Source: Escherichia coli (GTDB lineage Bacteria; Pseudomonadota; Gammaproteobacteria; Enterobacterales; Enterobacteriaceae). Taken from it: a stretch of 25,066 bases of DNA. The stretch lies in NCBI RefSeq assembly GCF_003334815.1, contig NZ_QOWO01000048.1, one strand, 5' to 3'. The translations under genes and the position numbers were made by a program. Position 1 is the first letter of the stretch. The number at the start of each line of letters is the position of its first letter. The notes below the pieces were generated by a model. The model had not been told where the DNA came from. It saw only the letters and a list, made by a program, of their open reading frames with translations, and searched no databases. This document shows, one piece after another, positions 1-4,680 of this stretch.

Positions 1-39
1 AAAAAATCGGCTCAAACATGAAGAAATGAAATGACTGAG

Positions 40-336
40 TCAGCCGAGAAGAATTTCCCCGCTTATTCGCACCTTCCCTAGGCCATTAGCTAACAAAGCA
101 AGATAATTCGCCCTTAACCTTCTAGCATCAGCAAGTGAGATAGCTGGGAAAGCACCTATCCCTATCATTGTTCTTTTTTTTGTAGTTGGTCGTTGATAGC
201 GAAAGCGCCAGAGTTTTTTACCGTTTGTTTTCACTATCAGAAAAAGCCCATCACCATCATGCAGTGTTAGATCCTTATCTAGCGCTTTAGCACGTAGAAC
301 TTCGGTGTTGCTCAGAGGGCGTGTTGTCCGAGCCAC
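40..336 (-). pseudogene. P4-family (phage-type) tyrosine integrase, N-terminal fragment only (98 aa, then in-frame TGA at 40-42)
   Basis: Translation MARTTRPLSNTEVLRAKALDKDLTLHDGDGLFLIVKTNGKKLWRFRYQRP... matches the N-terminal arm-binding domain pattern of P4-like integrases (DGDGL..L.V...G.K.W.FRY). GTG start at 334-336 preceded by AAGGAG (revcomp of 344-349). Integrases of this family are about 400 aa; no catalytic domain continues in any frame through positions 1-39. Lies directly downstream of the ssrA 3' end, the classical island integration site. Confidence 0.6.
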
Positions 337-354
337 TTGGCCGCTCCTTAATGA

Positions 355-408
355 ATTGGTATACGCGTTTAGGTATACATCCTATCGTATACCTAAACGT
401 ATACCAAT
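355..408. repeat. Near-perfect inverted repeat upstream of the integrase fragment; candidate operator or arm-type site
   Basis: Left arm 355-378 attggtatacgcgtttaggtatac and right arm 387-408 gtatacctaaacgtataccaat are reverse complements apart from a 2-nt indel. Inner perfect 13-bp arms at 366-378 and 387-399, 8-bp spacer atcctatc. Contains four GGTATAC motifs. Confidence 0.7.
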
Positions 409-519
409 AATCACTGGATTTAGCGGGATATCCTCGGACAACGGTAGACACAAAAAAGCCCACAGGGCTTGCGCCATGCGGGCTTTCAGGATTTCTCCGG
501 ACGTATCCGGAAGAGCAAG

Positions 520-882
520 TGGTGGAGCTGGCGGGAGTTGAACCCGCGTCCGAAATTCCTACATCCTCGGTACTACATGCTTAGTCAGTCTTTACATTCG
601 CTTGCCAGCTGCGGACGGACACGCCACTAACAAACTAGCCTGATTAAGTTTTAACGCTTCAACCCCAGGCAGGGCTTCCACGCGATCTCTTTTGGGTTTG
701 ACCTCTCTTGATCCCCGTCCTAAGAGCGGAGGCTAGGGAGAGAGGGCTCTAAGCAGGTTATTAAGCTGCTAAAGCGTAGTTTTCGTCGTTTGCGACTATT
801 TTTTGCGGCTTTTTACGAGGCCAACCGCCCCTCGGCATGCACCTTGGGTTTCGCAAATCCCGTCGAATCCAGAATCAGCCCC
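520..882 (-). ncRNA. ssrA: tmRNA (SsrA, 10Sa RNA), 363 nt
   Basis: Reverse complement reads GGGGCTGATTCTGGATTCGACGGG at the 5' end (882 downward) and ...GTTCAACTCCCGCCAGCTCCACCA at the 3' end (to 520), matching E. coli tmRNA. Internal tag reading frame present. Confidence 0.97.
761..793 (-). other. ssrA: tmRNA tag-peptide reading frame encoding ANDENYALAA plus stop
   Basis: Reverse complement of 761-793 is GCAAACGACGAAAACTACGCTTTAGCAGCTTAA = A N D E N Y A L A A stop, the canonical E. coli degradation tag. Confidence 0.9.
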
Positions 883-896
883 AATGTGTAAAGGTA

Positions 897-926
897 AGTA
901 TACCAGATTTATGAGCGCCATGACCA
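897..926 (-). promoter_or_regulatory. ssrA: Putative ssrA promoter (-10 TATACT, weak -35 TGGTCA)
   Basis: Reverse complement of 897-902 is TATACT, about 14 nt upstream of the mature tmRNA 5' end, consistent with a short precursor leader. Candidate -35 TGGTCA is the reverse complement of 921-926 at 18-bp spacing. Inferred from sequence only. Confidence 0.4.
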
Positions 927-1096
927 GCCTCAATGGCGTTATCGTTAAAGATTTAGCACCCATGTAGCCTGATTTTTATTCGATTAAGCAATGGGATGGC
1001 AACATTTGTGTCGGATGTGATAGCCAATAAGATGTTCATTCGCGCCGCCGGAGAGGGAGGCGCGGTGAGGAACTGGTCAATAATTGGAGTGCAGGT

Positions 1097-1579
1097 TTAA
1101 CGGTGGGCGTTTTTCATGATACGTGCTTTATCCACCTGCCATTCGCGCTCTTTGATATCTGAACGTTTATCGTGCTGTTTCTTACCTTTGGCGACGCCGA
1201 TTTTCACTTTGCACCAGGCATTTTTCCAGTACAGGGAGAGCGCCACTACGGTATAGCCTTCTCGATTGACGCGACCGTACAATGAGTCCAGTTCGCGCTG
1301 GTTGAGAAGTAACTTGCGGGTACGGGTAGGATCGCACACCACATGCGTGGAGGCCACGGCCATTGGCGTGATGTTAGCGCCAAACAGAAATGCCTCTCCG
1401 TCACGCAGAAGGACGTAGCTGTCGCTGATATTGGCTTTTCCTGCGCGCAGGGATTTAACTTCCCAGCCTTGCAGGGCAAGTCCCGCTTCGAACTCTTCTT
1501 CGATAAAGTATTCGTGACGGGCGCGCTTGTTAAGCGCGATGGTCGCTGAACCAGGTTTATGTGCTTTTTTCTTCGTCAT
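1097..1579 (-). CDS. smpB: SsrA-binding protein SmpB (160 aa)
   Basis: ORF translation [45 protein letters not shown]... matches SmpB; immediately upstream of ssrA in the same orientation. Confidence 0.97.
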
Positions 1580-1710
1580 AAGCGTCGTGAATCATCGGTA
1601 ATCTGAAATCGAAAACACCCCATATCAATCCTGCGGGGGACAAGGCTCTATCTTAGCATGAACCCGATGTTACCCAGCGCCGGGATAGCGTTTTTTTTAC
1701 AGCAGGATAA

Positions 1711-2187
1711 ATGATATTATTTGTTGGATTTTTGTTGATGGAAATTGTTATGCCTCAGATTAGCCGGACCGCACTGGTACCCTACAGCGCGGAGCAAATG
1801 TATCAGTTAGTGAATGACGTTCAGTCTTATCCTCAGTTTTTGCCGGGTTGTACCGGAAGTCGGATTCTGGAGTCCACTCCTGGGCAGATGACTGCGGCGG
1901 TAGATGTCTCTAAGGCTGGGATCAGCAAAACGTTTACTACCCGCAACCAGTTGACCAGTAACCAAAGTATTCTTATGAATCTGGTGGATGGGCCGTTCAA
2001 GAAATTGATTGGTGGATGGAAGTTTACGCCGCTGAGCCAGGAGGCGTGTCGTATCGAGTTTCATCTCGACTTTGAGTTTACCAATAAGTTGATTGAACTC
2101 GCCTTTGGTCGCGTGTTTAAAGAGCTGGCGGCTAATATGGTCCAGGCTTTTACGGTTCGTGCGAAAGAGGTTTACAGTGCCAGGTAA
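1711..2187 (+). CDS. ratA: SRPBCC/Coq10-like ribosome association protein RatA (PasT/YfjG), 158 aa
   Basis: ORF translation [47 protein letters not shown]... matches E. coli RatA; divergent from smpB as in K-12. Confidence 0.9.
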
Positions 2188-2467
2188 AATTGCCGTTGAG
2201 GTGGCTTATGCGCTACCTGAGAAGCAGTACCTGCAGCGAGTGACGCTGCAGGAGGGCGCGACGGTTGAAGAAGCTATTCGCGCCAGTGGCTTGCTGGAAT
2301 TGCGTACCGATATCGATTTAACTAAAAACAAAGTCGGCATTTACAGCCGTCCGGCAAAACTAAGCGATAGTGTGCATGATGGCGATCGGGTGGAGATTTA
2401 TCGCCCTCTCATTGCCGATCCGAAAGAGCTTCGCAGGCAACGAGCAGAAAAATCAGCGAATAAATAA
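2177..2467 (+). CDS. ratB: RatB (YfjF), 96 aa, RnfH/ubiquitin-like fold family
   Basis: GTG start at 2177 gives [27 protein letters not shown]...; overlaps the ratA 3' end by 11 nt. The ORF track's longer 124-aa version starts inside ratA. Confidence 0.85.
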
Positions 2468-2474
2468 CAGACAG

Positions 2475-2503
2475 AAAAAAGGTGCTCATTGAGCACCTTT
2501 TTT
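2475..2503. terminator. Bidirectional intrinsic terminator between convergent ratB and bamE
   Basis: aaaaaa-GGTGCTC-att-GAGCACC-tttttt: 7-bp perfect stem, 3-nt loop, flanked by an A-run and a T-run so it can terminate both strands. Confidence 0.75.
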
Positions 2504-2528
2504 AACGTCTTTGAGAGCAACTTTATTA

Positions 2529-2870
2529 TTAGTTACCACTCAGCGCAGGTTTGTTATCAATATTGGTCAACACACCGCTACTGTTAAAGGTCAGCGTCAG
2601 CGTTTGCTGAGTTACACCTTCATGACCTGGTTGCTGGCGGAAGACATAGAACCAGGTATTCGTACCAAATGGATCGGACATCAGCGGTGTACCCAATGCG
2701 TACGCAACTTGTTGTTGCGTCATGCCAACACGTATTTTGGATACGTCGTTAGCGGTCAGATAGTTCCCCTGGTTGATGTCAGGACGGTAAACCACTCGCT
2801 CCAGAGTGGAACAGCCTGCGGTCAACATCAATAGTACTGCTGCTGCAGCAGTCAGCGTTTTACAGCGCAT
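2529..2870 (-). CDS. bamE: Outer membrane protein assembly factor BamE (SmpA) lipoprotein, 113 aa
   Basis: Translation [38 protein letters not shown]... with lipobox LTAGC; matches BamE. Confidence 0.95.
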
Positions 2871-3018
2871 AGTGATTTGATTCCTTTTCGGGCCCGAGCA
2901 GTACGTGGCTCATCTGTAATATGCCGATGATAATAGACCTTTCATCACTTTAAAACCTTTTGCTTTCCGGTCTTACGGCGTTTTGCTGTTTACTCTGACC
3001 GTGAAGCAGGAAAAAAGT

Positions 3019-4680
3019 TTACGCTGCAAGCAGTTCTTTCGCATTCGCCAGTGTATTACGTGTGACTTCACTGCCACCAAGCAGGCGCGCCAGCTCTTGT
3101 AACCGCGCTTTTTTATTCAGGGATTGCATATGCGTTTCTGTCATCGCACCATCGGTTTCTTTGCTGACAAAATAGTGTTGATGACCACATCCCGCGACTT
3201 GTGGCAGGTGGGTAACACACATCACCTGAGTTGATTCGCCGAGTTGACGCAGCAGTTTGCCGACAACTGCCGCTGTTGGACCGCTAATCCCTACATCCAC
3301 TTCATCAAAAATCAGTGCCGGGGTTTCCATTTTACGCGCCGTGATGACCTGGATTGCCAGTGCGATGCGGGACAATTCACCACCGGATGCGACTTTGGCA
3401 ATAGGCTGCATTGGCTGACCTGGGTTGGTGGTTACCCGAAACTCAATACGATCGGCACCGTCAGCGCCCAGGTGATGCTCGTCAAATTTAACATCGATCG
3501 TAAACTGCCCATGCGGCATTGAGAGCGCATGCATACTGTCGGTGATCAGCTGTGCAAGTTCTTCTGCATATTGCTGGCGTTGTTGGTGTAATGCGCGCGC
3601 GATTTCCAGTGCCTGCTGATGATGTTTCGTTACCGCCAGCGCAAGCGTTTCTTGTGAGTCGGCCTGATCGTCCAGTTGCTGCTGTTCTTCCAGTAGCGAC
3701 TGGTAATACTGTGGCAATGCCTCAGGGCTGACGTGATGTTTACGTGCCAGCGAAATCTGTTTTGAGATGCGCTGTTCAAGTTCAAATAGTCGGTTGGGAT
3801 CGAGATCCAGACGATCGCAGTAGTGGCGCAGTTCATCGCTGGCTTCAGCAATCTGGATGGTAGCTTCTTCCAGCATATCAAGTACGCCGGACAGTTTGCT
3901 GTCCATGCCAATCAATTCGCTCACCAGTTGTTTAGCCGTGTAAAGCTGACTTTGCAGGTTTGCGTCTTCACCGTCGGCCATTAATGCCAATGCATTCTGG
4001 CTGGTGGTCAGCAATTGACCGCTGTTCGCCAGACGTTTGTACTCTTCGTCGATTTGTTCAAACTCTCCGGGCTGCGGATTAAATTCGTTAAGTTCTTTTA
4101 ATTGGTATTGCAGCAGTTCCGCACGGGCGGCGCGTTCCTGACTTAACTGTTGATGATGCGCGAGGTCACGGCAGCTTTGATGCCACAACTGATAACGTGC
4201 GGTCATTTCCTGCAGTAGAGAGGTTTCATTGGCATAGCCATCAAGCAGGAATTTTTGGTGCTCAGGTTTGGTGAGTAATTGATGAGCGTGCTGACCATGG
4301 ATCTGAATCAGCAACTGACCCAGTTCGCGCAGTTGTGACAGAGGAACAGCTGTACCGTTGATGAAACCACGGGAGCGACCATCGCTGCTGATCACGCGAC
4401 GAAGCAAACATTCATGCCCGTCTTCAAGCTGGTTTTCTTCCAGCCAGCGCAGAGCCGCTGGCGTATCTTTCAGAGAAAAACGGGCGCACAGGTCAGCGCG
4501 AGCAGCGCCGGTACGCACCATGTCGGCTTCAGCGCGACCACCGAGACAAAGACCGAGGGCATCTATTGCAATAGATTTACCCGCGCCGGTCTCGCCAGTT
4601 ATTACGGTCATGCCGCTATGAAAATCAATCTCAAGCTCACGAACGATAGCAAAGTTGCTGATGGTCAGTTGTGCCAACAT
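3019..4680 (-). CDS. recN: DNA repair protein RecN (SMC-like ATPase), 553 aa
   Basis: Translation [44 protein letters not shown]... with Walker A GETGAGKS; length and sequence match RecN. Confidence 0.97.

Follow-up and report, generated by a model that had tools for sequence, protein, structure and literature searches.

The ratA–ratB pair of Escherichia coli K-12 (yfjG–yfjF), which is the same locus as pasT–pasI of UPEC, was described in the original 2011/2012 model as a type II toxin–antitoxin (TA) module, in which the toxin, RatA, binds to the 50S subunit and prevents 70S formation, with RatB as the antitoxin. Later, pasTI was reported not to be a TA module, PasT was recognized as a homologue of Coq10, and human COQ10 was found to complement pasTI mutants (Fino et al., 2020, PMC7424257). 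In a 2026 preprint, RatA was reported to bind ubiquinone-8 (Q8) and to interact with UbiG and UbiF; it was proposed to act as a ubiquinone shuttle, the new name ubiM was put forward for its gene, and the function of RatB was stated to be elusive (bioRxiv 10.64898/2026.05.04.722385).

RnfH, the family to which RatB belongs, is known from the Rnf1 complex of Azotobacter vinelandii, where it is a cytoplasmic subunit that has no cofactor and is in contact with RnfB and RnfC (PDB 8AHX). In Rnf complexes, paralogues of RnfH function with no RatA present.

The window analyzed here is a stretch of 25,066 nucleotides from E. coli (assembly GCF_003334815.1, contig NZ_QOWO01000048.1). Its ratA–ratB locus has the same genes, the same overlap, and the same neighbors as the K-12 and UPEC loci, from which it does not differ, and the 951 bases from 1580 to 2530 are 100% identical to those of E. 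coli K-12 MG1655 and many other strains. The gene order from left to right is tmRNA, smpB, ratA, ratB, and bamE, followed by recN, nadK, and grpE. The features of the locus are the following:

520–882, minus strand: tmRNA gene (Rfam, 295.8 bits)
1097–1579, minus strand: smpB, the divergent neighbor (NCBIfam SmpB, 222 bits), 170 nt from the ratA start at 1750
1711–1749, plus strand: obsolete N-terminal extension of ratA, 13 codons; promoter and 5' UTR, non-coding under native expression
1712–1720, plus strand: probable extended −10 element TGaTATTAT of the ratAB operon (conserved block; mapping in PMC11988751)
1750–2187, plus strand: ratA (pasT, yfjG) coding sequence, 145 aa (Pfam PF03364, NCBIfam PRK10724, PDB 1T17, conserved ATG)
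2165–2170, plus strand: ratB Shine–Dalgarno (SD) sequence AAGAGG, in the ratA codons K-E-V, 6 nt before the GTG
2177–2187, plus strand: 11-nt overlap between the beginning of ratB and the 3' end of ratA (window sequence)
2177–2467, plus strand: ratB (pasI, yfjF) coding sequence, 96 aa, GTG start (PF03658, PRK01777; RefSeq coordinates identical)
2475–2503, both strands: bidirectional intrinsic terminator A6-GGTGCTC-ATT-GAGCACC-T6, with a 13-pair stem and a T run
2529–2870, minus strand: bamE, the convergent downstream neighbor (NCBIfam BamE, 231.7 bits), in conserved synteny

The pair is very probably a core operon of the E. coli chromosome with a housekeeping role, whose two cistrons encode a Coq10-like RatA and an RnfH-type RatB, and not a TA module. 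The finding in the earlier note is real, was correctly interpreted, and is already published (Fino 2020; Fasnacht 2025, 2026), to which the evidence of natural RatA::RnfH fusions for a partnership of the two proteins is a modest addition.

Both the 11-nt overlap and the divergence from smpB (on the minus strand), as described in the earlier note, agree with the window sequence and the ORF coordinates. The ORF at 1711–2187 on the plus strand ends with the TAA at 2185–2187, while ratB opens with the GTG at 2177–2179 in a frame shifted by one relative to ratA and runs for 96 codons to the TAA at 2465–2467, the shared bases being 2177–2187. Both ORFs are real genes, with Pfam matches and NCBIfam equivalogs above their cut-offs. 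Between ratB on the plus strand and bamE on the minus strand lies a hairpin of seven perfectly matched pairs with A6 on one side and T6 on the other, a terminator common to both genes. The Rfam search of positions 1–3100 returned the tmRNA only and no riboswitch, leader, or sRNA at the locus. Two antisense ORFs (1807–2064 and 2206–2340) were considered spurious, as they lie inside strongly supported coding sequence, and a terminator-like hairpin at 1676–1692 on the plus strand was treated as a chance feature, since only its T-tract and not the hairpin is conserved in other genera.

RatA was assigned by the earlier note to the SRPBCC/Coq10 family and RatB was expected there among RnfH-like proteins, and the profile searches placed the two in Polyketide_cyc (START) and Ub-RnfH, respectively, and in no unrelated family. 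RatA matches the full model of PF03364 (positions 1–126, 1.5e-38), PF10604 (4.9e-11), and the NCBIfam equivalog PRK10724 (304.8 bits). Its closest solved relative is the Coq10-type protein CC1736 of Caulobacter (PDB 1T17), matched by sequence at 1.7e-19. When the AF2 model of a fused relative (P0286, 219 aa) was searched with Foldseek, START/ARO-CYC folds and 1T17 were the top matches, the latter with a TM score of 0.74 (target), so that the helix-grip START fold is indicated both by the sequence match to 1T17 and by the model of the fused homologue. RatA thus shares its Pfam family and START fold with mitochondrial Coq10 and CC1736; unlike Coq10, it is partly cytosolic and not purely membrane-bound (bioRxiv 10.64898/2026.05.04.722385), and in beta- and gammaproteobacteria it is paired with an RnfH, whereas Coq10 has none. 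Solitary ratA genes are common outside the beta- and gammaproteobacteria.

RatB covers the whole Ub-RnfH model (PF03658, positions 1–83 of 83, 3.7e-35) and scores 154.1 bits against NCBIfam PRK01777, for which the cut-off is 75. Among solved structures, it matches the hypothetical protein of PDB 2HJ1 (6.8e-28) and chain H of 8AHX, the RnfH of the A. vinelandii Rnf1 complex (1.4e-13). The protein homologue search returned near-identical Enterobacteriaceae proteins only; the breadth of the family comes from a library of 1.84 billion representatives, in which 3572 RatB family representatives were found at E <= 0.001. The family motif DGDR-v-EIYRPL-xx-DPK-xx-RR-x-RA is present in the RatB of the window, and 24 diverse members all share its residues E72, I73, Y74, R75, L77, P81, and R85. 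The RnfH proteins linked to RatA form a subfamily marked by the near-invariant C-terminal tail YRPLxxDPKxxRRxRA. RatB and the RnfH of Rnf1 share PF03658 and the beta-grasp fold, and both are without a cofactor; they differ in that ratB is encoded after ratA and not after rnfE, and in the tail, which is unmatched because the alignment to Rnf1 RnfH ends at chain residue 74 of 86, before DPKxxRRxRA. At this locus, ratB lies outside any rnf or rsx operon, the rnf-operon type being seen in Methylococcus. RatB is reported to be intolerant of tags.

The left boundary is the one point on which the earlier note did not hold. Position 1711, given there as the beginning of ratA, is the first ATG of the ORF and corresponds to the obsolete K-12/UniProt start, while the functional coding sequence is 1750–2187 and begins 39 bases downstream, at the ATG that yields 145 aa. 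RefSeq also places the ratA start at window position 1750 with a product of 145 aa, and the 144 positions of the NCBIfam ratA model align to residues 14–157 of the long ORF only. The comparison comprised 82 loci, from 80 Enterobacteriaceae species plus two RefSeq E. coli loci (L001 and L002), and the ATG equivalent to 1750 is kept in all 82. The ATG of the 1711 type is separated from that of the 1750 type by an in-frame stop in 23 of the 80 species; an open upstream ATG at −39 is absent in 26 of the 80; and the species alignment contains 1-nt indels between the −10 element and the real ratA start. The upstream ATG at 1711–1713 is nonetheless well conserved, although it is not a start. It falls within the block AAATGnTAtTATTT, which is the best-conserved stretch of the smpB–ratA spacer (alignment of 79 loci, 69 distinct sequences). 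In our reading of this block, TG at 1712–1713 and TATTAT at 1715–1720 would form an extended −10 (TGnTATAAT-like), the exact assignment of the hexamer being our own.

The segment 1711–1749 is promoter and leader and not coding sequence. The conserved −10 block and the non-coding character of this segment fit the experiments of Fasnacht et al. (2025, PMC11988751), which comprised western blots, mass spectrometry, mutagenesis, primer extension, and dRNA-seq and in which the native promoter was found to give rise to the Met14 form of RatA only. The same study placed a sigma70 −10 box within the annotated ratA ORF and the transcription start site downstream of Met1, and mutation of Met1 led to less ratA mRNA (PMC11988751). 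Owing to a poor −35, the promoter escaped a simple sigma70 scan, which gave none on the plus strand upstream of ratA; it was recovered, as an extended −10, only from the 80-species alignment.

The earlier note derived the ratB start from the overlap, placing it inside the ratA 3' end, and this placement is upheld by the comparison across species. The GTG at 2177 is the only in-frame start conserved in all 80 Enterobacteriaceae species, and no true start lies downstream of the ratA stop at 2185–2187; the best alternative is present in 52 of the 80 and would remove the first conserved strand. An extension of ratB to TTG-2093 (124 aa) was rejected on account of in-frame stops 36–51 nt upstream of the GTG in 24 of the 80 species, and likewise no alternative start is conserved for it. 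The overlap itself is 11 nt long in 72 species and 17 nt in the remaining eight, which belong to the Citrobacter freundii group and have an insertion of 6 nt that leaves the relation of the two frames unchanged. In 79 of the 80 species, the GTG is preceded by GAGG. The glutamate codon of ratA that holds the SD core is GAG in 80 of 80 species, against 58% GAG at the other ratA glutamate codons (46% to 86% at six other conserved sites), which directly indicates that selection acts on the ribosome-binding site of ratB within ratA. The bases within the overlap vary freely, so the geometry is what is conserved, and its maintenance across 80 species argues that the overlap is not a chance feature.

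Beyond the Enterobacteriaceae, ratB starts with GTG in an 8-nt overlap in Yersinia, Proteus, and Aeromonas, with ATG in an 8-nt overlap in Neisseria, and with ATG in a 14-nt overlap in Legionella and Ralstonia. In metagenomic relatives whose RatB is 45–57% identical, the start is ATG as called, with overlaps of 1, 4, 8, or 14 nt or a 3-nt gap. None of the RatA-linked junctions examined across beta- and gammaproteobacteria has a gap of more than 3 nt; locus L090 is too short to include its junction. Overlap is thus a general property of RatA-linked rnfH genes, with a length specific to the clade.

The start codon and SD of the downstream gene thus lie inside the upstream coding sequence in a conserved geometry, as in a coupled pair. 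Translational coupling of ratA and ratB is plausible on the basis of this geometry and of the synonymous constraint on the SD, and the conserved GTG and SD together with the GAG bias support, short of proof, a tightly linked translation. The RNA fold of the junction (2130–2230) gave z = 0.02, with no structure predicted to hide the ratB start; since ratB has a good SD of its own and no sequestering structure, independent initiation could suffice.

The distribution of the pair is that of a conserved chromosomal locus and not of a mobile TA cassette, as the earlier note had stated. All 5426 complete E. coli genomes have the locus, the median copy number being one, and among the 80 Enterobacteriaceae loci the order smpB–ratA–ratB–bamE is kept wherever the flanks extend far enough to include these genes. 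A divergent smpB lies 146–187 nt upstream in 81 of the 82 loci, the upstream flank of the remaining one (L026) being too short to tell. Homologues of RatA and RatB were found in 37 and 26 of 72,556 plasmid records, respectively, many of the matches being Mb-sized records or fragments with chromosomal gene order, and in seven and nine of 50,697 phage records. In the four phage records listed, the locus is near an end of the record, and these copies are read as host DNA flanking ssrA-integrated prophages. The distribution is therefore not patchy, multi-copy, or associated with mobile elements, and the pair is not recognized by defense or TA profile libraries, as neither RatA nor RatB matched a family of the PADLOC profiles at E <= 0.01. 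The ratA–ratB locus is a core chromosomal operon and not a mobile TA module.

When two genes are fused, this is classically taken as evidence that their products are partners, physically or functionally. Among the RatB family representatives, a 241-aa protein with both domains was found, and RatA::RnfH fusions comprise at least 26 distinct clusters at 90% identity, 219–259 aa long, with PF03364 followed by PF03658 and a mutual identity of 37–84%. The five clusters examined have 4 to 64 member sequences each, with several members on Mb-scale contigs; MAG Gammaproteobacteria and Candidatus Persebacteraceae (Tethybacterales) are among the names that the sources give for the fusions. By sequence, the fusions form two groups, and they occur in two genomic contexts, one being dnaB–[fusion]–smpB on a single strand, where the fusion gene and smpB overlap by 4 nt, and the other smpB(divergent)–[fusion]–dksA. 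In a rough NJ tree without support values, one fusion group was placed with unfused gammaproteobacterial pairs, a hint that fusion has occurred more than once. For one fusion, an AF2 model built from a paired alignment has a pLDDT of 91.9 and a pTM of 0.76, and in it the C-terminal helix of the START domain leads into the first RnfH strand via a two-residue connector. An E. coli protein with both Pfam domains (P0001, 163 aa, 100% E. coli) was set aside as a frameshifted gene call in the TTG-2093 frame and not a real fusion. As far as the text of Fino et al. (2020, PMC7424257) and of the preprint (bioRxiv 10.64898/2026.05.04.722385) was covered by term search, it contains no mention of such fusions. 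The fusion evidence stands in contrast to the published view, in which no functional link between RatA and RatB is evident.

The natural fusions argue that RatB is a physical partner of RatA. Judged by their occurrence in several gammaproteobacterial lineages, RatB is most likely a partner or adaptor of this kind. More specifically, and tentatively, RatB may be a dedicated beta-grasp partner of RatA/UbiM in beta- and gammaproteobacteria, produced in step with it, that docks the Q8-loaded START domain on a membrane redox or biosynthetic complex; this docking is modeled on that of RnfH at RnfB and RnfC and is supported by the RatA::RnfH fusions. Purified RatA and RatB formed no complex in the original study (bioRxiv 10.64898/2026.05.04.722385; PMC7424257). 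The construct used in that test was an N-terminally His-tagged version of the annotated ratA ORF (PMC11988751), presumably the mis-annotated long form, and the missing complex may be owed to the use of this 158-aa RatA.

The original TA model is already largely refuted, and we regard it as scarcely tenable for this locus. The earlier note had called the toxin role of RatA questioned, and the evidence goes further and refutes it (PMC11988751; PMC7424257). The product name in NCBIfam and RefSeq is still "type II toxin-antitoxin system toxin RatA" and the family name "RatA family toxin", which is historical. Similar to classical type II systems such as MazEF and RelBE, ratA–ratB is a small operon of two overlapping genes, and over-expression of the 158-aa ORF arrests growth, an effect relieved by co-expression of pasI in one study. 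The growth arrest, however, requires the non-native 13-residue extension, while only the delta14 form is made natively (PMC11988751), and, as noted above for the start, 23 of the 80 species have stop codons that close this extension. In contrast to MazEF and RelBE, the gene order is reversed, with the presumed toxin gene first, deletion of ratB is viable, and native toxicity, a neutralizing complex, mobility, and a patchy distribution are all lacking (PMC11988751). The universal, single-copy, and syntenic occurrence of the pair in E. coli and the 80 species, its near absence from plasmids and phages, and the lack of a PADLOC match likewise speak against a TA module, and the fusion of the two genes in some lineages would join a toxin permanently to its antitoxin, which is at odds with TA logic.

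The other two alternatives accept a housekeeping operon and differ on the role of RatB. That the overlap is incidental compaction, with ratB translated separately from an SD of its own and with two functionally unrelated products whose genes are neighbors by descent only, seems unlikely, even though the ratB SD is strong, is under selection of its own, and is occluded by no predicted structure. This reading would also accommodate the differing overlap lengths of the clades (1, 4, 8, 11, 14, or 17 nt, or a 3-nt gap), the complementation of all ratAB deletion phenotypes by ratA alone (bioRxiv 10.64898/2026.05.04.722385; PMC7424257), and the occurrence of rnfH without an upstream ratA in Acinetobacter, in loci L091 and L092 (where the upstream ORF has no NCBIfam match), and in the rnf operon of Methylococcus. 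It is opposed by the limit of 3 nt on the gap at every RatA-linked junction, by the recurrence of ratA–rnfH fusions in two sequence groups and two contexts, by similar copies per cell (~30 RatA and ~50 RatB, cited in PMC7424257), and by the collapse of ratB expression on deletion of ratA (log2FC −6.75; bioRxiv 10.64898/2026.05.04.722385), the last of which could be a transcript effect. It is quite unlikely that RatB works mainly with another partner, either RsxB/RsxC of the Rnf-like Rsx complex or SmpB–tmRNA. A link to Rsx or Rnf is conceivable from the match of RatB to the Rnf1 RnfH of the cryo-EM structure and from a two-hybrid interaction in Legionella between a RatB-like and an RnfB-like protein (PMC11445079), but the alignment to Rnf1 RnfH stops short of the tail that is conserved in the RatA-linked subfamily, and rsx is located elsewhere in the genome. 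The adjacency of smpB was noted previously (Iyer et al., 2006; Hudson et al., 2014; PMC1779556, PMC4131195), and a role with SmpB–tmRNA was suggested from the gene neighborhood by Iyer et al. (2006); smpB is the divergent neighbor at nearly all loci and overlaps the fusion gene on the same strand in one fusion lineage. Nevertheless, E. coli RatB has no experimental link to Rsx or tmRNA, and the protein to which RnfH is fused is RatA, not SmpB or RnfB.

The reading preferred here, a housekeeping operon for a Coq10-like protein and its RnfH-type neighbor, would work as follows. Transcription would begin from the sigma70 extended −10 promoter at 1712–1720, inside the formerly annotated ratA ORF, and would end at the bidirectional terminator at 2475–2503. 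The first cistron (1750–2187) encodes the 145-aa START-fold RatA/PasT (UbiM), a homologue of mitochondrial Coq10 that binds ubiquinone-8 and is its proposed shuttle between the Ubi metabolon in the cytosol and the inner membrane, which would sustain aerobic respiration. The second (GTG 2177 to 2467) provides RatB/YfjF, a cofactor-less beta-grasp protein of the RnfH family, from an SD within the last ratA codons. As the ratB start lies 11 nt before the end of ratA, ribosomes finishing ratA would terminate just downstream of it, and both proteins may be made together.

Among the "false TA" loci of E. coli, ratA–ratB is one of the best characterized, and its reinterpretation has already been published. 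It is a clean case in which a mis-annotated start codon created a spurious toxin, the old start being part of the promoter −10, and the promoter nature of that start can be recovered from comparative sequence alone. The recurrent fusions and the strictly conserved junction lead to the hypothesis that the ubiquinone shuttle RatA has the conserved RatB/RnfH protein as a stoichiometric partner, and this partnership is testable with the correct 145-aa RatA.

The extended -10 element of ratA (TGaTATTAT, 1712-1720), which lies inside the formerly annotated ratA ORF, is directly overlain by two minus-strand pairs of sigma70-like hexamers, together spanning 1711-1744 of the window. Both pairs could represent a putative smpB promoter placed back-to-back with that of ratA in a common AT-rich block. 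At the other end of the gene pair, a symmetric A6-hairpin-T6 terminator between the convergent ratB and bamE can terminate transcription on either strand.

1744..1716, minus strand: sigma70-like hexamer pair 1
1738..1711, minus strand: sigma70-like hexamer pair 2
2475-2503, both strands: symmetric A6-hairpin-T6 terminator between ratB and bamE

At the left edge of the window, beside the tmRNA gene ssrA, bases 1-77 are part of a multi-copy element. This element has matches in 2,031 of 5,426 E. coli genomes, where a single genome can carry as many as 42 of them, and was also located at 910 places on plasmids. It adjoins a truncated integrase fragment, and window 1-336 looks like a decayed ssrA-integrated island interrupted by IS-like sequence.

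1-77: part of a multi-copy element of E. coli genomes
40-336, minus strand: ORF of a truncated P4-type integrase fragment

Among homologous loci, some RnfH genes are missing the RatA gene upstream. For instance, in Acinetobacter baumannii (L105:416-1806), RnfH is preceded by, and shares 1 nt with, a hypothetical ORF of 355 aa that is unrelated, and bamE and fur are retained downstream; in Methylococcus (L108:184-1174), RnfH follows rnfE in an rnf-operon type of arrangement. At L084:778-1190, upstream of a RatB relative with 65% identity, ratA is broken across two reading frames (two tblastn segments) and carries no gene call; it is a pseudogene or else the product of faulty assembly.

RnfH also occurs in fused forms. 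P0218 (428 aa), from an AT-rich uncultured organism, joins an RnfH domain to an APH/choline-kinase-like domain (protein-kinase fold) of approximately 330 aa; at both of its loci, the gene still lies 3 nt downstream of ratA, and smpB is divergent from it. In one lineage of natural single-ORF ratA::rnfH fusions (L095-L098), with dnaB upstream, the fusion ORF runs 4 nt into the start of smpB, which has the same orientation. In this lineage smpB appears to share a transcript with the fusion and is possibly translationally coupled to it.

L093:1274-2560 and L094:2501-3787: P0218 gene
L095-L098:3001-3660 and 3657-4154, same strand: ratA::rnfH fusion ORF and smpB
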